This document shows positions 1,189 to 50,715 of a stretch of DNA of 64,000 bases, piece after piece. The notes under the pieces are model-generated. The model saw nothing but the letters and a program-made list of their open reading frames with translations. It did not search any database and had not been told where the DNA came from. How positions within the stretch are numbered: the stretch's first letter is position 1; each line of letters opens with the position of its first letter. Origin of the DNA: a virus; the IMG/VR virus record IMGVR_UViG_3300030616_000002, positions 1-64,000 of that record; one strand, 5' to 3'. Position numbers and translations under genes: made by a program.

Positions 1189-1431
1189 CTACAAGCTCCG
1201 TACTGGATCGTCGAGCAGGGCCCGCTTGACCCGCTCCTGCTCCGCGTCTCGACCCTCTGCGCTCCGCACGCAGAGCATGAAAAAATCAGAGTCCCGTGGA
1301 TCGCCGACCAGCGCAGCCGAGTAGGCCTTGATTCGGCAGCGGCGTATATACGCCAAGTCTCGCTTGCCTAGCTTGCCTACCGCGCGCACTGCGGCCGAGT
1401 AAGCCCTATCGTCTCCGCCCTGATCGCTCAT
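1189..1431 (-). CDS. hypothetical protein
   Basis: ORF track, 80 aa, in the minus-strand block. Confidence 0.45.
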   Translation of the reverse strand: MSDQGGDDRAYSAAVRAVGKLGKRDLAYIRRCRIKAYSAALVGDPRDSDFFMLCVRSAEGRDAEQERVKRALLDDPVRSL

Positions 1432-1443
1432 ACCGCGCCCTCC

Positions 1444-1797
1444 CTACAGCACTCGTAGATCGTAGTGCGTTTCCAAGCGCAGGAAGTTGGGCCGCTGCTC
1501 GGCCGGCTCCTCCCACCACACCTCGCCGCCGAAGCGCTCCTCTAGTCTGCCGCCGAGCCCCTGGATCAACTCCCGCAGATCGTCGCGGTGCATCAGACAC
1601 GAGACTCCCGCCGGCCACGGGCCGACCGCTACGTGCAGTAGATCGGGTCCTCGCGTGAGTCCCCGGCGGATCATCTCGGCAGCTCCCCCCGCCGCCTCCG
1701 ACAGTGGGCCCCCCGAGGCAGACTCTAGGATCTGCAGATCAGCGAGCACCCGGATCAGTGATACCTGGATCGATTGTTTTTCGCGGCAGCAGTGCAT
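1444..1797 (-). CDS. hypothetical protein (first gene of leftward block)
   Basis: ORF track, 117 aa. Start faces the divergent intergenic region 1800-2090. Confidence 0.5.
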   Translation of the reverse strand: MHCCREKQSIQVSLIRVLADLQILESASGGPLSEAAGGAAEMIRRGLTRGPDLLHVAVGPWPAGVSCLMHRDDLRELIQGLGGRLEERFGGEVWWEEPAEQRPNFLRLETHYDLRVL

Positions 1798-1923
1798 CTG
1801 TCGCCCCCCCTAGCCCAGCAAGCCTTGCAAGCCCTGTGCGAAAAAAAGATAGCACCGCTCCGGGAATTCCGTCAAGCTCCGTTGCAATTCCGCCATATGC
1901 CCGCCCTCCGTTGCTAGATAGAC

Positions 1924-1993: not shown

Positions 1994-2030
1994 ACGACGG
2001 CAAAAACGGTACACGCGCGCGCGAGGAAAA

Positions 2031-2066
2031 TAAAACCTTGACACCGCTTGGCAAGCCCTTTATCTT
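2031..2066 (+). promoter_or_regulatory. candidate rightward promoter A (A-rich tract, -35 TTGACA, -10 TATCTT)
   Basis: TAAAACC TTGACA (2038-2043), 17 nt spacer, TATCTT (2061-2066). The spacer end CCCTTTATC is shared with promoter E at 34421-34449. Confidence 0.5.
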
Positions 2067-2089: not shown

Positions 2090-2317
2090 ATGGGCGGCAA
2101 GGTTAACAGGACCAATAAACCCACGGCGTTAGTGACGCCGTACGCGAAAAAGCTCCTGCAGATCTACCGGGGTTACGAGGGGTGCCGGGATGCCGAGGTG
2201 GTATCTCCGCTGGTGATCGAGTACGTGCAGCGCTGGGCAGAGGAGCGGGGGATCCCGATCCCGACCGAGGCCGAGTACGAGGCCGAGTTCCGGGCCAGCA
2301 ATCCAGAGACCGACTAG
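2090..2317 (+). CDS. hypothetical protein
   Basis: In frame with ORF 2048..2317. I prefer ATG 2090 because GGAGGG (2077-2082) sits 7 nt upstream and 2048 lies upstream of the predicted -10. Confidence 0.5.
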   Translation: MGGKVNRTNKPTALVTPYAKKLLQIYRGYEGCRDAEVVSPLVIEYVQRWAEERGIPIPTEAEYEAEFRASNPETD

Positions 2318-2368: not shown

Positions 2369-2399
2369 GCGGGCTAGCTAGGGTAGCGAGGCAAGCATG
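2369..2399 (+). promoter_or_regulatory. conserved leader GCGGGCTAGC..GAGGCAAGCATG (also at 39016-39038)
   Basis: Read directly. The same leader precedes the start codon of 2397..3377 and the 5' end of the tRNA-Ser gene at 39037. Confidence 0.5.
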
Positions 2400-3377
2400 C
2401 CGTATCGCATCCGTGACTGGGACAATAATTTTGAGAACGCGAGATCTAGAGCTATAGAAAAATGCAAATGGGTACCGATGCCGAACAAGCAAGACGGAAT
2501 GGGATTTACTCGCGTCATAGCAGAGCCGGACGGGGCCGCGATCTACGGCATCTGGTGCCTGATCGTCGGCGCGTGCTCAAGGCAAAAGGCAGAGCGCGAT
2601 GGCTGGCTAACAGACGACGGCTTGGAGACCGGAGCCCCGTGGACCGCGAGTGATCTTGCCCTACGCTGGCGGCGACCACTGGAGGAGGTTGAGCGGGCCC
2701 TGGCGTTCCTGTCGAGCGATAAAATCGGATGGATCGAGGCTATCGGCGAAAGTCACCAAAACGATACCCGGGCGATACCTGGTACCGCTCAAAGCGACAC
2801 CCGGGCGATACCCAGTACCTCTCGGGCGGCACCGGATGGATCCTGCCTATCCAGATCAGGAATAGAAGGGAAGGAAGGGAATAAGTACTCTGTCAAAGCG
2901 CAAGCCGTCTTTGAGTGCTGGAAAAACGAAATGGGCAAGGCCCCCAATACGAAGTTCAAGCCGAAATCCAAGAGATACAAAAATGTAGTCGCTAGAATCA
3001 AAGACGGGTTTTCAGTAGAAGACCTCTGCTTGGCCGTACTAGGTTGCAAGAACACGCCGCACAACATGGGCCAGAACGACCGCAGCGAGAAGTACAACGA
3101 CCTGGAGCTTATCTGCAGGGACGTTGAGCACGTAGAGCGCTTCATAGAAAAAGCTACGGGCCAGGACGGCGAGGATCAGGATGATTGCTGGACCGCAGCA
3201 ACAAAAGAATTGATAGCTCTCTGCGAGTCCCGGGAACTGAAAGCGAAGATCGGAACGGCATCGAAAGAAGCGCAGCAAGTCTGTAGCAAGATCGGACTCT
3301 CGAAACTAGAGGGCCTAGACATGGCATCGGCACGAGGGGCGATCTACTCGGTCGCAGATCGGCTAGCCGGCAAATGA
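2397..3377 (+). CDS. replication initiation / replisome-organizer-like protein
   Basis: 326 aa, immediately upstream of dnaB and overlapping it by ATGA. The C-terminal segment VFECWKNEMGKAPNTKFKPKSKRYKNVVARIKDGFSVEDLCLAVLGC resembles the conserved C-terminal domain of phage DnaD-like/replisome organizer proteins (recalled, not searched). Confidence 0.5.
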   Translation: MPYRIRDWDNNFENARSRAIEKCKWVPMPNKQDGMGFTRVIAEPDGAAIYGIWCLIVGACSRQKAERDGWLTDDGLETGAPWTASDLALRWRRPLEEVERALAFLSSDKIGWIEAIGESHQNDTRAIPGTAQSDTRAIPSTSRAAPDGSCLSRSGIEGKEGNKYSVKAQAVFECWKNEMGKAPNTKFKPKSKRYKNVVARIKDGFSVEDLCLAVLGCKNTPHNMGQNDRSEKYNDLELICRDVEHVERFIEKATGQDGEDQDDCWTAATKELIALCESRELKAKIGTASKEAQQVCSKIGLSKLEGLDMASARGAIYSVADRLAGK

Positions 3378-4704: not shown

Positions 4705-4735
4705 TTGACTTTCCAGGCTAGCTAGGCTAGGCTGG
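4705..4735 (+). promoter_or_regulatory. candidate promoter B with CTAG-box
   Basis: TTGACT (4705-4710), 17 nt spacer, TAGGCT (4728-4733). Overlaps GGCTAGCTAGGCTAGGCTGG (4716-4735). Confidence 0.45.
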
Positions 4736-4746
4736 CTTGCGGGCTT

Positions 4747-5485: not shown

Positions 5486-6158
5486 CGAGCGATTGACCGG
5501 TCCGAGAACGCCCGAGGAAGACGGGCTGATTGTCTACGGGATCGACCCCGCGTCTCTGGGCGCGTGGCCCGATTTCGCCGACCGCGAGATCCGGGATCCT
5601 GCGCTGCCCCCAGACGTGATCCCGCGAGTAGAGGAGAGGCCGGATGGGACCGACTTGGACGCGCTGATCGACAAATATCTGGCCTACGAAGAGGATCGCT
5701 ACGTGATCCGATTCGCGTTACGGGGCAAAGGGCCGGCGGAGATCTCTGCTGCGTTCGATGCTATCGGCTGGCCGTGTCCAAAGGGTACGATAAAAGAGCG
5801 GCTCAACAAGTCAGTCGCGGTGTTATCCGCCGCCTACAAACTAGAGTGCGTAGACCGAGAGATCCGCGTATCGGCGTTGACCGAAAAGCAACATGCGATC
5901 TGGCGGTACTACCGGGCGGGCGAGACCTATCGGGGGATAGCCGAGGCGCTGGGATGCGGGACGCGCTTCGCCTTCGAGCAGATGGCTACGATAACCGAGA
6001 ATCTGCGAGCGGCCGGCTACGGCGAGATCGTTGACGCCGTAGACGCGCTAAGAAAAGCGATGGCCCCTGGGGGCCGAGGAAACATAAGCCGGATTAGTCC
6101 GGACGGAGGACACGATGGAGCCACATCCGATAGCGGGACTGTTCCCGCCGCTTCCTGA
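5478..6158 (+). CDS. HTH protein (LuxR / sigma-70 region-4-like C-terminal half)
   Basis: 226 aa. LTEKQHAIWRYYRAGETYRGIAEALGCGTRFAFEQM looks like a region-4 type helix-turn-helix. Confidence 0.4.
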   Translation: MTNERLTGPRTPEEDGLIVYGIDPASLGAWPDFADREIRDPALPPDVIPRVEERPDGTDLDALIDKYLAYEEDRYVIRFALRGKGPAEISAAFDAIGWPCPKGTIKERLNKSVAVLSAAYKLECVDREIRVSALTEKQHAIWRYYRAGETYRGIAEALGCGTRFAFEQMATITENLRAAGYGEIVDAVDALRKAMAPGGRGNISRISPDGGHDGATSDSGTVPAAS

Positions 6159-7158
6159 TGCCGAGTATCAGGAGCTAGTACAAGACATCCGAGATAACGG
6201 GCAGCGAGATCCGATCACGGTCTGGAAGGAAAACGGCAACGAGTGGATCGTTGATGGGTGCTCGCGGTTCAAGGCGTGCACCGAGATCGGGGCCGCGGTC
6301 AAGGTCGATTACGAGGAGTTCAGCGGCGACGGCGAGATCTTCGCGTTCGTTATGAGCCGGAATATGCGGCGGCGTCACATGGGTACGTCACAGAGATCGC
6401 TCCTCGCGGCCGAGCTAGCCCAGTACTACATGGACAATATCGCCCGGGACGATAGCGAGCAGAGCGCGAGCGCCGCGCTCAAGGAAACGGCGAAGGCACA
6501 GAGGGTATCCCCGCGCTCCGTTGCCTCGGGTAAGGCGCTAGAGATCGCTGGGGTAGATGAACTAGTCGCGCTGGTCAAGGGCGGAGACCTTGCGGTCAAC
6601 CCGGCCGAATTGGTAGCGAAGAGTTGTACTCCCGACGAGCAGCGGGCGCTAGTAGAGGCTGGGCCAAAGGCGGTCAGAAAGAAGGCAAAGGAGATCCGCG
6701 AGCAGAAGAAAAAGCAGCGGGCCGCGGAGAAGGCGTTGCGTGAGGCCGAGGCGCAGGCTGGTGTAAAGCCGGCGGAGGACGCTGCGCCAAGGCCTGATCC
6801 CGACAAGCCGCGAAAGAGCATAACGCTCGGCGCAGACAAGCCGCAGGGGCGCGACGCGATAGTTGAGTCGGAGCCGGAGCTAGAGCCCGAGGTTGAGCGC
6901 GACGACGCGATCTGCGGCGGTCCCGACTGCGGGCTGGTAGTCGACCCGGATCAGTGTATCCGGGCTGACGCCGATGGCTCGCGCGGGTATTTCTGCTCGC
7001 TAGCCTGCTTGCTCTCCGCAATGCTGGCGGGGATTGCGATCATAGATATCGAGATCATCGGCGGTAGCACGGCAGCGGAATTTCTCGCCGCCCTCGATAT
7101 CCCCGAGGCCAGGGCCGAGGCGGTGCGGGATGCCCTGAACAAGGCGCGCGTCGGATGA
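6115..7158 (+). CDS. ParB-like nuclease domain protein
   Basis: 347 aa. N-terminus HPIAGLFPPLPDAEYQELVQDIRDNGQRDPITVW...IVDGCSRFKAC is ParB/Srx-like. It has a Lys/Ala-rich linker and a Cys-rich C-terminus (CGGPDCG...FCSLAC). Confidence 0.7.
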   Translation: MEPHPIAGLFPPLPDAEYQELVQDIRDNGQRDPITVWKENGNEWIVDGCSRFKACTEIGAAVKVDYEEFSGDGEIFAFVMSRNMRRRHMGTSQRSLLAAELAQYYMDNIARDDSEQSASAALKETAKAQRVSPRSVASGKALEIAGVDELVALVKGGDLAVNPAELVAKSCTPDEQRALVEAGPKAVRKKAKEIREQKKKQRAAEKALREAEAQAGVKPAEDAAPRPDPDKPRKSITLGADKPQGRDAIVESEPELEPEVERDDAICGGPDCGLVVDPDQCIRADADGSRGYFCSLACLLSAMLAGIAIIDIEIIGGSTAAEFLAALDIPEARAEAVRDALNKARVG

Positions 7159-15317: not shown

Positions 15318-16265
15318 ATGGCTCGTGTACTGGTAACAGGCGGCGCTGGATTCATCGGATCGCACCTCTGCGATGCGCTGCTCATCCGCGGCGACGAGGT
15401 AGTCTGCCTTGATAACTTTTTCTCGGGTAGCCGGGACAACGTACAGCAGCATCGCGAGAATCCGCGCTTCGAGCTAATCCGCCACGATGTTGTTGAGCCT
15501 ATTTTGCTTGAGATCGATCAGATCTATCACCTGGCGTGCCCTGCCTCGCCGATCCACTACCAATACAACCCGGTCAAGACGACCAAGACTAACGTAATGG
15601 GAACGCTGAACATGCTCGGCTTGGCGAAGCGGGTAGGGGCGCGGCTGCTGCTAGCCTCTACCTCCGAGGTGTACGGCGATCCCGAGGTGCATCCACAGCC
15701 TGAGGATTACTGGGGACGGGTGAACCCTATCGGGCTGCGTTCCTGCTACGACGAGGGCAAGCGCGTAGCCGAGACGCTCTGCTTTGACTACCGCAGGCAG
15801 AACGGCGTGGACGCGCGCGTAGTGCGGATCTTCAATACCTACGGCCCGCGTATGGCTGCTGATGACGGCCGGGTAGTAAGCAACTTCTGTGTGGCGGCGC
15901 TCACCGGCAAGCCCCTGCTGGTATATGGGGACGGTAGCCAGACGCGGTCGTTCTGTTACGTACGCGACTTGGTCGACGGGCTGATCGCCGCGATGAATGG
16001 CGAGGCCGAGGGTATAGAGGGGCCGATCAATCTCGGCAACCCGGATGAGCGGACGGTACTAGAGCTGGCGCAGAAGATACTCTCCCTTACCCCGCCTGGG
16101 CCCGGCATCGAATACCGCGATCTGCCGGCAGACGATCCGGTCCGGCGGAAACCGGTAATAGATCGTGCTCGCAAGATCCTATGGTGGCGACCTACCGTCT
16201 CCCTAGATAGCGGCATAAGGACTACGTTAGAGAGCTTCCGCGAAAAAAACCTTGCTAAAGGCTAG
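15318..16265 (+). CDS. UDP-glucuronate decarboxylase (UDP-xylose synthase), SDR family
   Basis: 315 aa. [14 protein letters not shown] (Rossmann GxxGxxG), [15 protein letters not shown] (YxxxK) and [11 protein letters not shown] are characteristic of UXS-type enzymes. Confidence 0.88.
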
Positions 16266-16283
16266 CAAGGCTAGTAAGGCTAG
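16243..16283 (+). promoter_or_regulatory. candidate promoter C with CTAG-box
   Basis: AAAAAAACC TTGCTA (16252-16257), then GGCTAGCAAGGCTAGTAAGGCTAG (16260-16283). Overlaps the 3' end of the UXS gene. Confidence 0.4.
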
Positions 16284-23806: not shown

Positions 23807-24144
23807 GCGATTACGATCCGCTGTTAGAAGAGGACTTGGATCTGTGGGAGCGGGAGTTTTCCGTATTCGAAGGGGGCCTGGGGTATTCGCAGCGGCACTT
23901 TGTCGGTCGGCTGATAGCTACGGTGCGGTTGGGTTTTGCGATCGAGCGGTATCGGGGTCGAATGCGGTGCAAGAATTGTGGTGCGTGGGATCGGGATAGT
24001 GGCCCGGGGCCGCTGGGCGGGGAGTGGCGGGAGTGCCAGAAGCTATGGCGGTACTTTCCTCCTTATTTCGGTTGTCCGTATTTCGAGGAGCGGGACGAAA
24101 AAAACCTTGCTTCTCGGCGCGGTTCTGGTAGTGTGGCTAGCTAG
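23803..24144 (+). CDS. hypothetical protein
   Basis: In frame with ORF 23767..24144. Start uncertain; GTG 23803 is coupled to the micro-ORF. Confidence 0.4.
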   Translation: MSDYDPLLEEDLDLWEREFSVFEGGLGYSQRHFVGRLIATVRLGFAIERYRGRMRCKNCGAWDRDSGPGPLGGEWRECQKLWRYFPPYFGCPYFEERDEKNLASRRGSGSVAS

Positions 24145-24158
24145 GCTAGGCGGGCTAG
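24098..24158 (+). promoter_or_regulatory. candidate promoter D with CTAG-box
   Basis: AAAAAAACC TTGCTT (24107-24112), 16 nt spacer, TAGTGT (24129-24134), then GGCTAGCTAGGCTAGGCGGGCTAG (24135-24158). Confidence 0.4.
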
Positions 24159-24311
24159 ACGGGAGGCACGAGACGATTACGGATCTCGCTTGGCACGTGG
24201 CTTCTCTCTTTAGAGCCGAGCCCATGTGCTGGTCTTTAGTGAGTCCGGATCTTAAGACGCGAATCGGGTACGAGTGGATCGGAGAGAAGAGAGGGAGCAA
24301 GGGGAGCAATC

Positions 24312-24461
24312 ATGGCTACAGGTAGCAAGGATGGATCGGGCAAGGGCAAGGGGCGTCCTGGCGGCGGCGGTCGGAACCGGAACAAGGGTCCGGGGACTCG
24401 CGGCGGCCCCGGTTACGGGAAGGGCGGTGGTCGCGGGAAGGGCCAGGGGCGGGGCAAGTAG
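24312..24461 (+). CDS. Gly/Arg/Lys-rich small basic protein (49 aa)
   Basis: Own translation: MATGSKDGSGKGKGRPGGGGRNRNKGPGTRGGPGYGKGGGRGKGQGRGK. AGGGGAG lies upstream. It is the first ORF after promoter D and is too short for the ORF track. Confidence 0.4.
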   Translation: MATGSKDGSGKGKGRPGGGGRNRNKGPGTRGGPGYGKGGGRGKGQGRGK

Positions 24462-25179: not shown

Positions 25180-25692
25180 GTGAAGTTCAAGCCCGGCGAC
25201 ATCGTCAAGGCGCTGCGAGATAGCGAGCGCTATTTGCACTTAATGGTTACTCCCGCGGGCAGCCTGGGGTTAATCACTGGCGCTTTTGTGGACTCATGGA
25301 GCGGGAGGCAGAAGTATTGGATTGACTTCGACCACGTGCGCGTAAACATGATTGAGAGCAATCTTGTAGCTGCTACGCCGGCCGAGGCATTAGCGTTTCG
25401 AGAGCGTGGGTCGTTTGCTCTGAACGGGCATGTAGAGAAGCGCGCCTATACGCTAGAGAATACGTATTGTGATTACGGCCACATGAGCAATCCTAGCGAG
25501 CACTACGGCGAGAGGGAGAACCCGCACGTTCGGCTTGCGCGGATGATGGGCCAGCCGACCTGGGGAAATGTGCACGACGCGCTCAATGCGGGGCGTCCGA
25601 GTCCGGATAAGCGCGACTGGTCAAAGAGCAACCGCGAGGTCATGGTTGCGTATCTTCGCCAGCGGGCTAGCAAGGCAAGGGAGGGAGCATGA
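25180..25692 (+). CDS. hypothetical protein
   Basis: ORF track, 170 aa. Confidence 0.55.
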   Translation: MKFKPGDIVKALRDSERYLHLMVTPAGSLGLITGAFVDSWSGRQKYWIDFDHVRVNMIESNLVAATPAEALAFRERGSFALNGHVEKRAYTLENTYCDYGHMSNPSEHYGERENPHVRLARMMGQPTWGNVHDALNAGRPSPDKRDWSKSNREVMVAYLRQRASKAREGA

Positions 25693-30722: not shown

Positions 30723-30774
30723 CGTAAAAACGGCGATACGGAAACAACCCGCACCCTGGCGCGGTAATAGGTGC
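30719..30774 (+). promoter_or_regulatory. repeated intergenic element, copy 1 (GTAACGTAAAAAC..CGGAAACAACCCGCA..GCGGTA)
   Basis: About 80 percent identical by eye to 50658-50715. Follows the terminase stop and precedes the portal gene. Confidence 0.6.
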
Positions 30775-34384: not shown

Positions 34385-34411
34385 AAATCTGAAAAACGGA
34401 CAGGGGCGGCG

Positions 34412-34475
34412 AAAAAAACCTTGACTGGGATCCCCGGTCCCTTTATCAATGGCAAGCAAGGCTAGCTAGGCTAGC
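34412..34475 (+). promoter_or_regulatory. candidate promoter E with CTAG-box (best match to sigma70 consensus)
   Basis: AAAAAAACC TTGACT (34421-34426), 17 nt spacer, TATCAA (34444-34449), then GGCAAGCAA GGCTAGCTAGGCTAGC (34460-34475). Confidence 0.55.
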
Positions 34476-39015: not shown

Positions 39016-39036
39016 GCGGGCTAGCGAGGCAAGCAT

Positions 39037-40206: not shown

Positions 40207-40237
40207 AAGGAACATAAAAACGGATCGCGAGGACCAG

Positions 40238-40286
40238 AAAAAACTTGCCGCTAGAGCACAGGGCTAGTAAGGGTAGCTAGGCTAGG
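40238..40286 (+). promoter_or_regulatory. candidate promoter F with CTAG-box
   Basis: AAAAAAC TTGCCG (40245-40250), 17 nt spacer, TAAGGG, within GGGCTAGTAAGGGTAGCTAGGCTAGG (40261-40286). AGGAGGA and GTG 40297 follow. Confidence 0.4.
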
Positions 40287-43794: not shown

Positions 43795-44522
43795 GCTACA
43801 TCGAGAATCCCAAGACCGCGGGCTCCGGTGTTATCGGCGCGATCCCGCACGCGGGCCTATGCCCTAACGGCTGTAAGGACTGCTTCTTTAACCGGGCCGA
43901 TGGATACCTGCACCCGCTCTCCGAGAACCTGCCCAACATGCCGACGCCAGATCAGGCAGAGGGTAGGGTAGTGCGCGTCAACGACGGCCACGATTCCAAT
44001 ATTGACCGCGAGATGGTCATGGAGGCGTGCAGGCCCTACGCGCAGAAGTTCTACAACACCAGTATCCCGCGAGACCTCGGCGGATTCGACGCCCCGGTCG
44101 TGCTTACGGTCAACCCGGGGGCCAAGACGGACAAGGGCTGGCACCGGATAGATCCGATCCCGCCGAACCTGATGTTTGTCAGGGTCCGCACGAATATGTG
44201 GAACCTCTGGCTTGTTGACGAGGTGGTGGACTACTACACGGAGCGCGGCGTATCTGTAGTGCTTACTTTTATGGCCTACTTTGAGCAGCCGATCCCGGTT
44301 GAGCACAAGCTAAACTATATCTCTAGGACGCGAACGATCAATCGCTACATGGCGATAACGACCGATGCGTGGCGTTGGGTAATGAAGCGCTACGAAGACA
44401 ATGTTTTGGTTTACTCCTGCGGCAAGATCGAGGGCGAGCGCGGGACTACGAAGTGTAGGTATTGCGGAAACTGTGTCCGGGAGTTCCACTCCGCGCAGGA
44501 GAGGCTAGCTAGGCTAGTATGA
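43791..44522 (+). CDS. Cys-motif protein, possible radical-SAM-like/Fe-S enzyme
   Basis: In frame with ORF 43710..44522, from GTG 43791 (GTGA overlap). GLCPNGCKDCFF is CxxxCxxC but lacks the aromatic residue before the third Cys. C-terminal CRYCGNC. Confidence 0.35.
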   Translation: MSYIENPKTAGSGVIGAIPHAGLCPNGCKDCFFNRADGYLHPLSENLPNMPTPDQAEGRVVRVNDGHDSNIDREMVMEACRPYAQKFYNTSIPRDLGGFDAPVVLTVNPGAKTDKGWHRIDPIPPNLMFVRVRTNMWNLWLVDEVVDYYTERGVSVVLTFMAYFEQPIPVEHKLNYISRTRTINRYMAITTDAWRWVMKRYEDNVLVYSCGKIEGERGTTKCRYCGNCVREFHSAQERLARLV

Positions 44523-47696: not shown

Positions 47697-48647
47697 ATGA
47701 AGCGCAATGTTGAGATAGCAGCAGAAATGGCGCAACGCTTGATCGAATACGCCGAGAGCGACAAGAACAAGCCGATCAGAAAGTACAAGCCGCCCAAGCG
47801 AGACCGTAGCAAATCGGCAGACGAGGAAACCCTGGTTCTACTTCATTCGGACAGCCAGATCGCACACCTTACGCCAACCTACAATTTCGAGATCTTCAAA
47901 CAGCGCAACACAAGGCTGGTAGAGAGAACCCTGCGGGTCGCGGACCTTGACCGCAAGGGCCGACCGATCAACCACGTCGAGCTGTTCTTGCTCGGTGATA
48001 TCATACATGGAGAGCGGGTAGGTAGGACCGTCGACCTTGATGAGCTAGAGGATACGGTTGCCGTTGCCATGTTCGACGTGGCGCTGCCGGGCCTCGAATA
48101 CGTAATAAACAACCTCGCACAGAATTTCAATTCTGTTGGAGTTCGTTGCGTCCGCGGCAACCACGGGATCGTGAGCAGGGACAACGCCCTTACGACCAAC
48201 TGGGACTATATAATCTGCAAGATCTTGGAGCGCGAGTATCGCAACAACCCGCACGTCAAGTTCTCTGTACCGAGTACGTTCTACCATATTCAGGACGTGA
48301 TGGGCTGGCGGTTCTTCCTTGCGCACGGGGACAAGATCAACATGTGGATGAACGTCCCGATCTACGGGATCGTCCAGAAGCTCATGCGCTGGGCCGGCAG
48401 TATCGGCGCGTTCGATTACGCCACGTTCGGCCACTTCCACAACCACGCGGACATGGACTGGAACGACAAGCGCTTTTTCATCAACGGCAACTTCACAACA
48501 GATGACCAGTGGGCGATCAAGACGCTCGGGCTCAAGGGCTCGTGCTCGCAGATGTTGCTTAACGTGCACCGGAAACTCGGGGTCGTCAATCAGCGGAAGA
48601 TCCACCTTGAGCAGTTCGAGCGTAGGACAAAGCAGGAGGCGTCATGA
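47697..48647 (+). CDS. calcineurin-like metallophosphoesterase
   Basis: 316 aa. LLHSDSQIAH, LLGDIIHGE, VRGNHG, LAHGDK and GHFH are the metallophosphoesterase signature blocks. Confidence 0.75.
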   Translation: MKRNVEIAAEMAQRLIEYAESDKNKPIRKYKPPKRDRSKSADEETLVLLHSDSQIAHLTPTYNFEIFKQRNTRLVERTLRVADLDRKGRPINHVELFLLGDIIHGERVGRTVDLDELEDTVAVAMFDVALPGLEYVINNLAQNFNSVGVRCVRGNHGIVSRDNALTTNWDYIICKILEREYRNNPHVKFSVPSTFYHIQDVMGWRFFLAHGDKINMWMNVPIYGIVQKLMRWAGSIGAFDYATFGHFHNHADMDWNDKRFFINGNFTTDDQWAIKTLGLKGSCSQMLLNVHRKLGVVNQRKIHLEQFERRTKQEAS

Positions 48648-49267
48648 TGCAGTTAACCGAGGGGCAGGAGGCGGCGCTAGAGGTACTGCGGGCCAGCGAA
48701 CAGCCCATGACCACGGCATCCGTATTCGAGGGGTCTGGCGGGCTCGTATGCAAGAGCAGGAGCAATACGCGGCGGGTCCTTGTGGGCTTGGTCAAGCGGG
48801 GGCTTGTCGCTCGCGTAGGGACTGGCGAGTGGGCGGCGGTAGAGAACGGAGCGGCTAGCCCCGAAAAAGGGTCTATTTTTGTGACAGACGGCGAGGCAAA
48901 GCAGATCATCGGCGCTGCTCTGGCGTTCTACTTTGAATCCCTGCTCAAGACGGATCCCGAGGGGGCAGCGCGGGTAGCCTATACGGCAGGGCTACACAAG
49001 GTCGGGATGCCGCGGAGGACGCAGAAGAAAGCGGATGAACCGAAGCCGGAGCCGAAGCGTAAGGCGCTCCCTAAAAAGCTGACGCTTCAGAAGTTCTGCG
49101 GGAAGGCGGAGGCCGCATATCGGGCTGGCCGTTTTTCGTTAGACGAGTTGAGCGACGCGACGGGGCTCGGCCGCGACTACCTGCGGAAGATCATCCAGGG
49201 CAAGGCGCACCCGAGAGACGAGACCCTGGAGAAGATCTACGCGGCGGTAGAGGAGCACTTGTCATGA
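48644..49267 (+). CDS. DNA-binding protein (winged-helix N-terminus, HTH C-terminus; candidate)
   Basis: 207 aa. RRVLVGLVKRGLVARVGTGEW and LSDATGLGRDYLRKIIQG. Confidence 0.4.
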   Translation: MMQLTEGQEAALEVLRASEQPMTTASVFEGSGGLVCKSRSNTRRVLVGLVKRGLVARVGTGEWAAVENGAASPEKGSIFVTDGEAKQIIGAALAFYFESLLKTDPEGAARVAYTAGLHKVGMPRRTQKKADEPKPEPKRKALPKKLTLQKFCGKAEAAYRAGRFSLDELSDATGLGRDYLRKIIQGKAHPRDETLEKIYAAVEEHLS

Positions 49268-50666: not shown

Positions 50667-50715
50667 AAACTGCAAACCGGAAACAACCCGCAACCGCTCG
50701 CGGTATATGGCGTGG
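50658..50715 (+). promoter_or_regulatory. repeated intergenic element, copy 2
   Basis: GTAACGTAAAAACTGCAAACCGGAAACAACCCGCAACCGCTCGCGGTATATGGCG aligns with 30719-30774. Precedes GTG 50712. Confidence 0.6.

Follow-up and report, generated by a model that had tools for sequence, protein, structure and literature searches.

Tandem CTAG-box arrays at gene junctions of a 94-kb phage genome as candidate operator sites

The 64,000-nucleotide stretch of DNA considered here (the window) is the first part of a single 94,084-bp virus record, IMGVR_UViG_3300030616_000002, which has direct terminal repeats and is rated complete. Its subject is a short box, GGCTAG, that stands in tandem arrays at gene junctions of this phage, and that an initial annotation, made from the sequence alone, had described as a repeat leader behind a family of promoters. 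We find that the arrays occur far above chance, that they lie at junctions and are restricted to the non-late regions, and that they have, in the related phage L111, a counterpart of conserved position and divergent sequence beside a gene whose product looks like a ribbon-helix-helix (RHH) protein. We tentatively prefer to read the arrays as operator or stoperator-like boxes for a small phage repressor, a reading that is possible rather than probable, and we weigh it below against several others, among them a role of the array in RNA.

Arrays and their placement

The array unit is 9 nt long, GG(C/G)(T/A)AG-NNN, with the consensus GGCTAGCTA and a spacer that is mostly CTA, CAA, CGA or TAA. Two to four units stand in tandem, and there are ~15 arrays in the genome. 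Allowing at most two mismatches, GGCTAGNNNGGCTAG has 40 matches where 6.7 are expected, a number reached in none of 100 shuffles. Arrays with at least three units (at most one mismatch per unit) number 10, one of them being array D (Table 1) read on the opposite strand, against 0.1 in Markov simulations. The 11-mer GGCTAGCDAGG is found eight times in the window (0.20 expected) and 12 times in the whole genome, and all 12 copies of this GGCTAGC(A/G/T)AGG core lie at gene junctions or in gaps. As a control, ~950 kb of unrelated loci gave one weak array.

The initial annotation had raised the concern that CTAG boxes might be equally common inside genes. For single GGCTAG words this is the case: they are frequent within genes (51 on the plus strand, 15 of these non-coding), and CTAG overall is near expectation (330 vs 314). 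The tandem form, however, is confined to junctions, apart from a single chance-like pair deep within a gene, with GGCAAG at 77935. It is thus only the tandem form of GGCTAG that is special.

The placement of the arrays is equally regular. Twelve of the 15 are followed, after 1-18 nt, by a start codon in the same orientation or, after 3 nt, by tRNA-Ser, where the chance fraction is 0.03; four of these start codons were set by hand, and ~ten arrays remain if called starts and the ARAGORN tRNA alone are counted. The orientation of two arrays at 91.4-91.9 kb, which are directed away from the gene closest to them, is ambiguous. The structural region (44.5-87.6 kb) is free of arrays. Some arrays also reach into the gene before them: those at 16260 and 24135 provide the stop codon of the upstream gene, and those at 25665 and 44503 overlap its last codons in the sole stop-free frame.

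The three extra CTAG boxes of the initial annotation, before the replication gene, the tRNAs and the methyltransferase gene, were all recovered where it had placed them. To these can be added three arrays in the window, at 25665-25679, 1833-1810(-) and 1377-1363(-), and four beyond it (last rows of Table 1). The annotated leader common to the replication gene and tRNA-Ser also proved to be real. The junctions before the two genes (arrays a2 and t) are identical over 22 nt apart from exactly one whole 9-nt unit, which is the bracketed part in GCGGGCTAGC[TAGGGTAGC]GAGGCAAGCATG and is missing from t. Since a2 and t differ by one whole unit, arrays change by gain or loss of units, and the junction was copied. 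The duplicated a2 junction includes the ATG of the replication gene, which is without use before the tRNA genes.

Two further regions that hold arrays deserve mention in their own right. Beyond the window, 91438-91896 of the genome is a 459-bp divergent control region with three arrays, at 91470(+), 91605(+) and 91838-91815(-); the two outer arrays are directed toward each other, and the minus-strand one is followed closely by a perfect TATAAT. The region may consist of face-to-face promoters with overlapping leaders. Behind array D (24159-24325), a Shine-Dalgarno sequence GGGAGG is followed after 9 nt by ATT (24176), in frame with a 49-codon open reading frame, and this ATT may be a non-canonical start.

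Promoters and the register of the arrays

The six rightward promoter-like sites A-F of the initial annotation are all present at their annotated positions. An A5-7 run, (C)C, and TTGAC or TTGC are common to A, C, D, E and F, the A-run lying directly upstream of (C)CTTG in each of the five, at about -38 to -46. CTTGAC(T) is common to B and the leftward sites 87665, 84783, 1953 and 1876. An A-run followed by CTTG(A/C) occurs at 10 distinct sites (2.9 expected), and AAAAAACCTTGAC with at most three mismatches at 17 (5.9 expected). By reading the sequence, acceptable -10 hexamers can be found 16-18 nt from the -35 in A, B, D, E, 87665 (the 87.6-kb promoter) and 1876(-), while in C, F and 1953(-) one has to accept either a spacer of 14 nt before TAGTAA or, at 17 nt, a poor -10. 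A generic promoter scan listed none of these sites, because its threshold was 9 of 12 matches. As annotated, A and E share CCCTTTATC, and in both the spacing from -35 to -10 is 17 nt.

Judged by its sequence, the A-tract/CCTTG(A/C)C promoter family is real. The sigma-70-like hexamers, the UP-like A-tract and the recurrence of the architecture in two distant relatives, L111 and L027, support its assignment as a family of putative host sigma-70-type promoters with a UP-element-like A-tract.

In seven of the ten predicted promoters (B, C, D, E, F, 87.6 kb and 1.8 kb), an array covers -10 or +1. In D, E and 87665, 0-1 nt separate the -10 hexamer from the array, most of which would then be transcribed; in B, C and F the array instead extends across spacer and -10, and provides the best -10 candidate (TAGGCT, TAGTAA). 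When A-F and the 87.6-kb promoter are compared, a unit starts 0-1 nt after the -10 hexamer in six of the seven. The register of the array to the -35, on the other hand, varies from 2 to 24 nt, and four arrays (2372, 25665, 39019 and 44503) have no promoter-like sequence upstream. The variable register and the promoter-less arrays indicate, therefore, that the array is a separate element and not a fixed part of the promoter or of the leader. The earlier description as a CTAG-repeat leader is apt for D, E and 87.6 kb, where the array follows the -10, but not for B, C and F, nor for the four arrays without a promoter. The suggestion of a signal for a phage-modified RNA polymerase found no support, as the variable register speaks against a fixed promoter element.

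Table 1. Arrays, predicted promoters and the first gene behind promoter A (genome coordinates).
Feature	Position	Strand	Details
Two-unit array	1363..1377	-	GGCAAGCTA GGCAAG; within or just 5' of a small leftward open reading frame (putative start)
Array R1	1810..1833	-	GGCTTGCAA GGCTTGCTG GGCTAG; 12 nt before ATG of gene 1797..1444
Predicted leftward promoter	1876	-	TTGACG 1875-1870, ~17-18 nt, TATCTT; R1 lies in predicted leader, starting ~12 nt after -10
Predicted promoter A	2026..2066	+	A-rich tract, CC, TTGACA 2038-2043, 17 nt, TATCTT 2061-2066; no array downstream, single GGCAAG inside spacer
Gene	2090..2317	+	first after promoter A; 75-aa orphan protein (P0174)
Array a2, three units	2372..2395	+	1 nt before ATG of replication initiator gene 2397..3377; no visible promoter
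Predicted promoter B and array	4705..4739	+	TTGACT 4705-4710; array GGCTAGCTA GGCTAGGCT GGCTTG 4716-4739; -10 candidate TAGGCT (4728-4733) built from array letters
Predicted promoter C and array	16243..16283	+	A7, CC, TTGCTA 16252-16257; three units 16260-16283, the first supplying the upstream stop codon; TAGTAA 14 nt after -35
Predicted promoter D and array	24098..24158	+	A7, CC, TTGCTT 24107-24112, 16 nt, extended -10 TGGTAGTGT 24126-24134; three units 24135-24158
Array x1	25665..25679	+	GGCTAGCAA GGCAAG; 9 nt before ATG 25689; no visible promoter
Predicted promoter E	34412..34474	+	A7, CC, TTGACT 34421-34426, 17 nt, TATCAA 34444-34449
Array E	34451-34474	+	GGCAAGCAA GGCTAGCTA GGCTAG; 18 nt before ATG 34493
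Array t	39019..39033	+	GGCTAGCGA GGCAAG; 3 nt before tRNA-Ser (39037); no visible promoter
Predicted promoter F	40238..40285	+	A6, C, TTGCCG 40245-40250, 14 nt, TAGTAA 40265-40270
Array F	40262-40285	+	GGCTAGTAA GGGTAGCTA GGCTAG; 11 nt before GTG 40297
Array m	44503..44517	+	GGCTAGCTA GGCTAG; 1 nt before ATG of split methyltransferase gene; no visible promoter
Array beyond window	87636-87613	-	
Array beyond window	91470-91484	+	
Array beyond window	91605-91628	+	
Array beyond window	91838-91815	-	

A number of other sequence features were seen at or near these promoters. At 16252-16277, 40245-40270 and 1952-1927(-), the -35 is followed after exactly 14 nt by TAGTAA, which is too short for ordinary sigma-70 and hints at a second promoter class or an activator-dependent one. 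The sequence AAAAACGG(A/T), common to A, E and F, lies ~20 nt upstream of the A-tract (about 1999-2007, 34393-34401 and 40217-40225) and could be a distal UP subsite or the site of another factor. The palindrome TGCAAATTTGCA occurs at 1983, 4747, 25141, 40195, 60891 and ~74520 of the genome; near promoters A, B and F it is found 40 nt upstream or just downstream, and it probably belongs to a second regulator of the same promoters. Finally, GGAAACAACCCGCA, followed by a small hairpin and GGTA(A/T)(A/T)A, is present at 30740-30753, 50679-50692 and ~68826 of the genome. It precedes the portal, scaffold/capsid and tail blocks, and is likely a late-class signal distinct from the CTAG class.

Relatives and the candidate binding protein

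Few relatives of the phage were found, via the neighbouring 392-aa protein, the terminase, the clamp and the rep protein; the phage collection holds no near-identical record. Among the relatives examined, related elements are present only in L027, L111 and L112, and were not found in L028, L108, L109, L110 and L113-L119; L029 looks bacterial. The GCGA / A-T-rich / CTTG(A/C)C architecture has three copies in L111 and one in L027. Two of the L111 promoter copies share their gene-order context with A and B, and the L027 copy takes the position of E. On the 2-kb contig L027, where the neighbouring protein has 63% identity, the place of array E is taken by a degenerate GGGTAG-GCT-TGCTAG-ATAA-GGGTAG that overlaps a promoter of the form TTGCCC, 16 nt, TAGATA.

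L111, with the same gene order and a rep protein that is 49% identical, is the more informative relative. It has three copies of CTAGCACGCTAG in 7 kb, all of them intergenic, with a period of 8 nt and not 9. The copy before rep, at the place of a2, gives an arm-TAG-arm-GAGG-5/6 nt-ATG alignment in both phages. The copy after DnaB, at the place of B, stands directly behind TTGCCG, 17 nt, TAGGCT and consists of three CTAG boxes with the 8-nt period, and the third copy sits on a leftward promoter. The L111 sites form a 5-6-bp inverted repeat around TAG, the arms of which change compensatorily (GCACGC/GCGTGC vs GCGTGC/ACACGC), and, read in the transcribed sense, each of the three sites has a UAG loop, even the one on the opposite strand. 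In the genomes compared, the position of the element is thus kept in part of the clade, with a sequence and period that are lineage-specific.

A search of IMG/VR for the exact array gave 19 matches, all unrelated single copies except phage G002, and the L111 motif gave no match there. In an unrelated phage with a complete 40.5-kb genome (L120, IMGVR_UViG_3300045970_000141), a non-coding stretch of ~100 bp at 900-1100 is dense with GCTAGGCTAG-type repeats, with another GGCTAG pair at a distance of 9 kb, so that CTAG tandem arrays also occur outside the present lineage.

We now consider which protein could bind the arrays. In L111, a 60-aa protein (P0173) is encoded between the counterpart of promoter A and the rep element. 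It has the N-terminal ribbon KLMSIKIP, a weak match to Pfam RHH_10 (E=0.0015) and an AlphaFold2 model with a pLDDT (predicted local distance difference test) score of 79, for which the Foldseek list is almost wholly RHH (Arc, CopG, CopA_SO, VapB) with weak E-values; P0173 thus looks like an RHH protein. Its positional counterpart in the present phage is P0174 (75 aa, 2090-2317), which has one homologue among 1.8 billion representatives, and which is a candidate array-binding regulator. Stretches that resemble the RHH ribbon are found in P0174 (KPTALVTP) and in a 71-aa protein at 93095-93310 (KRISVALP), for which no family or fold support was obtained. A ParB-like protein (6115-7158) and a helix-turn-helix (HTH) protein (48644-49267) are other candidate binders. 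Family searches with 88 concatenated small proteins, where the concatenation linker produced artefactual 'Serglycin' matches, and with 16 proteins individually gave no clear regulator except the HTH_3 domain in 48644-49267.

The remaining gene content provides the context for the transcription of the phage. The genome has a G+C content of 59.6% and, by our own rough call, 149 genes and 8.7% non-coding DNA. Among the gene products are a T4-type portal, a DnaB helicase, an O-like replication initiator, a bacterial-type sliding clamp and DNA methylases; there are two tRNA-Ser genes, and a gp23-type capsid gene was found in L024, a syntenic relative. No phage RNA polymerase was found among the proteins examined, no integrase in a partial protein survey, and no repressor or integrase family match among the proteins searched. 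The translations of the largest proteins, read by eye, suggest an intein-bearing tape-measure protein as well as baseplate/fibre-like proteins, and we assume on this basis that the phage is transcribed by the host RNA polymerase. The 1389-aa tape-measure-like protein, at 75340-79509 of the genome and thus beyond the window, appears by eye to contain the intein with a homing-endonuclease-like insert.

The operator reading and its alternatives

In the reading that we tentatively prefer, host-type promoters would drive the early and middle gene blocks, most likely via the host RNA polymerase, with the layout A5-7, (C)C, TTGAC/TTGC, 14-17 nt and a -10 that often opens with the TAG of a CTAG unit. 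The array, as double-stranded DNA, would be the cooperative binding site of a small repressor that is encoded by the phage and probably of the RHH type, each unit providing one box. At the seven promoters where the array covers the -10/+1 region, the bound repressor would block initiation. At the promoter-less junctions (replication gene, gene 25689, tRNAs and methylase), the bound array would hinder read-through polymerases, as in the stoperators of mycobacteriophages. Binding, the identity of the binder and the repressive effect are what we infer here, and operator sites are the best supported of the roles listed in the initial annotation.

Several observations support this reading. The arrays are far above chance and at junctions only, they lie over -10/+1, the classic position of a repressor, in a variable register, and their copy number shifts by whole units (a2 vs t). 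The distribution is class-specific, the structural genes carrying GGAAACAACCCGCA instead, and in the divergent control region at 91.4-91.9 kb two of the arrays are turned toward each other. In addition, the arrays with GCTTGC twice (at 1833) and GCAAGC twice (at 1377) keep the direct repeat and the 9-nt period where a hairpin is impossible. This identity of the units without pairing favours direct-repeat recognition. The unit that starts right behind the -10 in six of the seven promoters compared, the L111 element at the places of a2 and B with the RHH-like P0173 encoded beside it, and the degenerate units of L027 at the place of array E also speak for the reading, as do the precedents of ParG, MetJ and the L5-type repressors.

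It is also important to point out what weighs against the operator reading. The co-orientation of 12 of the 15 arrays with the following gene and the short distance to the start codon (or tRNA) fit a role at the RNA level equally well or better, the conserved, strand-specific NAG of the spacer fits such a role too, and the compensatory arms of L111 suggest pairing rather than a fixed half-site. The promoters and start sites are predictions, and the 14-nt spacer in C and F is unusually short for sigma-70. Among the relatives, L028 (~52-58% protein identity) has no promoter or array at the place of F, and upstream of rep L114 and L115 show a promoter with a structured leader, but the CTAG array is lacking. 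As for the binder, P0174 gave no family match, a poor AlphaFold2 model (pLDDT 60) and no fold match, and the RHH reading of P0174 and of the 71-aa protein is drawn from the ribbon pattern alone.

The main alternative, possible if rather unlikely, is that the array acts in the RNA leader. It could do so as a hairpin that serves as a processing or stability element, with a 5-6 bp stem and an NAG triloop (GCUAGC-UAG-GCUAGC) at the 5' edge of early cistrons and of the tRNA precursor, or as a row of UAG/AAG triplets for an RNA-binding regulator that would control translation of the adjacent start codon in a TRAP- or HutP-like manner. TRAP, which recognizes (G/U)AG repeats, and HutP, which recognizes UAG repeats, are established RNA-binding regulators. 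Beyond the co-orientation and the short distances to the start or to tRNA-Ser, this alternative is favoured by the four promoter-less arrays, which must be transcribed from upstream, and by the two that overlap upstream coding sequence in the sole stop-free frame. Most adjacent units can pair at 5-6 of 6 positions around the NAG loop, the L111 stem is kept via two compensatory pair changes with the UAG loop always in the transcribed sense, and the alignment to the rep ATG holds in both phages. However, the calculated folding energies are no better than those of shuffles (z -2.8 to +0.8, mostly near 0), and the hairpin follows automatically because CTAG is self-complementary. Arrays with GGCTTG or GGCAAG keep the 9-nt repeat but cannot pair. 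Moreover, the elements of B, C, F, L027 and the L111 minus-strand site overlap the predicted -10 and so would be absent from those transcripts, two arrays at 91.4-91.9 kb face away from the gene closest to them, and Rfam gave no match apart from the two tRNAs.

Another option considered was that one signal is read twice, as DNA boxes over early promoters and as an RNA tag, a UAG-loop hairpin or UAG repeat, before each early cistron and before the tRNA precursor. A single small phage factor, or two together, would in this way switch off transcription of the whole early class as well as its translation or processing, and the sequence and period of the box would co-evolve with the factor from lineage to lineage (here GGCTAG at 9 nt, in L111 CTAG at 8 nt). 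We regard this as improbable.

It is quite improbable that the array is itself the core promoter, with TAG-starting hexamers (TAGGCT, TAGTAA, TAGTGT) as -10 and GGCTAG as discriminator, and with additional downstream -10-like copies that lead to sigma-dependent promoter-proximal pausing or to alternative starts. The TAG of a unit does open the best -10 of B, C, D and F, as well as that in L111 (TAGGCT, TAGCGT) and L027 (TAGATA), GGCTAGGCT resembles an extended -10 (G at -14, TA, T at -7), and a unit directly follows the -10 in all but one of the seven promoters compared. On the other hand, four arrays have nothing upstream that resembles a promoter, not even a -35, the T required at position -7 of a -10 is replaced by A at the end of most units, and the distance to the -35 differs by as much as 22 nt between sites. 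Hexamers derived from the array are needed neither by promoter A nor by E, which has a -10 element of its own.

The least probable of the readings weighed here is that the arrays are junction or linker patches for recombination, used for swapping cassettes (promoter plus genes, or the tRNA pair) at module boundaries, with regulation being secondary. In this they would resemble the promoter early stem-loop (PeSL) cassettes of T4-type phages or the start-associated sequences of Cluster K mycobacteriophages. The 22-nt junction duplicated before the tRNA genes together with the replication-gene ATG would fit, as would the location of arrays at the boundaries of blocks that differ between relatives. 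PeSL elements, which combine an A/T-rich tract, a sigma-70 promoter and a stem-loop, do mediate shuffling (PMC2839356, PMC4122927). The identical stretches here are, however, just 11-24 nt long, shorter than PeSLs, and the order differs, the stem-loop of a PeSL lying upstream of the A/T tract and acting as a terminator. The position kept in L111 with another sequence argues for a co-evolving function and not for a homology patch alone.

The other candidates can be dismissed: a fixed phage-specific promoter by the variable register and the four promoter-less arrays, a phage-encoded RNA polymerase or N4-type hairpin promoters by the largest proteins as read by eye, sigma-54 -24/-12 by the spacing, anti-Shine-Dalgarno pairing since the 16S rRNA tail offers no complement to CTAG, restriction-site avoidance or enrichment by the near-expected overall CTAG count, a Rho-independent terminator by the lack of a U-tract, and iterons of the O-like replication initiator by the dispersion of the arrays.

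If the operator reading is true, one short, recognisable signal labels the whole early class of a 94-kb phage, apart from the late-gene motif, in a field where gene timing in uncultivated phages is almost unknown, and it would give an experimental handle on the phage regulator. Phage silencing sites spread over a whole genome are few in kind, stoperators being the known example, and a tandem-repeat version would then join them. The two related phages, which agree in the positions but differ in box and period, are a natural experiment on how regulator and site co-evolve. Should the arrays be plain operator sites, the result is a useful annotation rather than new biology; the interest rests mainly on the dual DNA/RNA reading or on a co-evolving regulator, if either is true.

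Comparison with known systems

Two known systems act close to the start codon. The start-associated sequence (SAS) of Cluster K mycobacteriophages is a conserved asymmetric motif a few nt before many starts, with Shine-Dalgarno-like purines and no known function. It differs from the present arrays in being a single 13-bp motif that is not tandem and not tied to promoters or tRNA genes. The triplets of TRAP and HutP lie in the leader beside or over the ribosome-binding site, spaced 5-7 nt, compared with 9 nt here. No TRAP-like or HutP-like protein was found among 88 small and ~29 other proteins, a set from which 26 small proteins, mostly of the structural region, were left out.

The PeSL cassettes of T4-type phages resemble the present sites in being a repeated combination of an A/T tract, a sigma-70-like promoter and a small inverted repeat at the boundaries of variable small genes (PMC2839356, PMC4122927). 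In PeSLs, however, a G/C-rich terminating stem-loop lies upstream of the promoter, while here a direct repeat stands at or after the -10 and is also found without a promoter; no stem-loop was seen upstream of the A-tracts here.

The stoperators of Cluster A mycobacteriophages come closer. They are many short asymmetric sites across the genome, some over promoters and others by start or stop codons, and such asymmetric sites are bound by L5-type repressors both at promoters and in short gaps between genes, in the orientation of transcription (PMC9283540). The present arrays likewise are many asymmetric copies at promoters and in short gaps, with an orientation correlated with transcription. Stoperators are, on the other hand, single 13-bp sites for a monomeric HTH repressor (L5 gp71-type) of a temperate phage, while we deal here with tandem 9-nt repeats in a phage with T4-type head genes, and no L5 gp71-family repressor of a temperate phage was found among the proteins searched.

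The RHH tandem-box operators (the ACTC boxes of ParG, the met-boxes of MetJ and the heptads of omega) share with the arrays the use of 2-8 boxes with a period below one helical turn. The ParG operator has eight 4-bp boxes just downstream of the -10, their spacing being dictated by the backbone of the protein, and the boxes bound by MetJ are tandem and 8 bp long (PMC3413123). The period of the present boxes is likewise fixed and sub-helical, at 9 nt (2-4 units) here and 8 nt in L111; a spacing set by the protein would explain this difference, and the L111 element adjoins the gene of the RHH-like protein. The RHH operators differ in serving one or few plasmid or operon promoters, as compared with ~15 genome-wide sites here, and the CTAG box with conserved GG and NAG flanks is described for none of ParG, MetJ and omega. 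As operators, the arrays would belong to a known kind of phage control site, new in sequence and layout.

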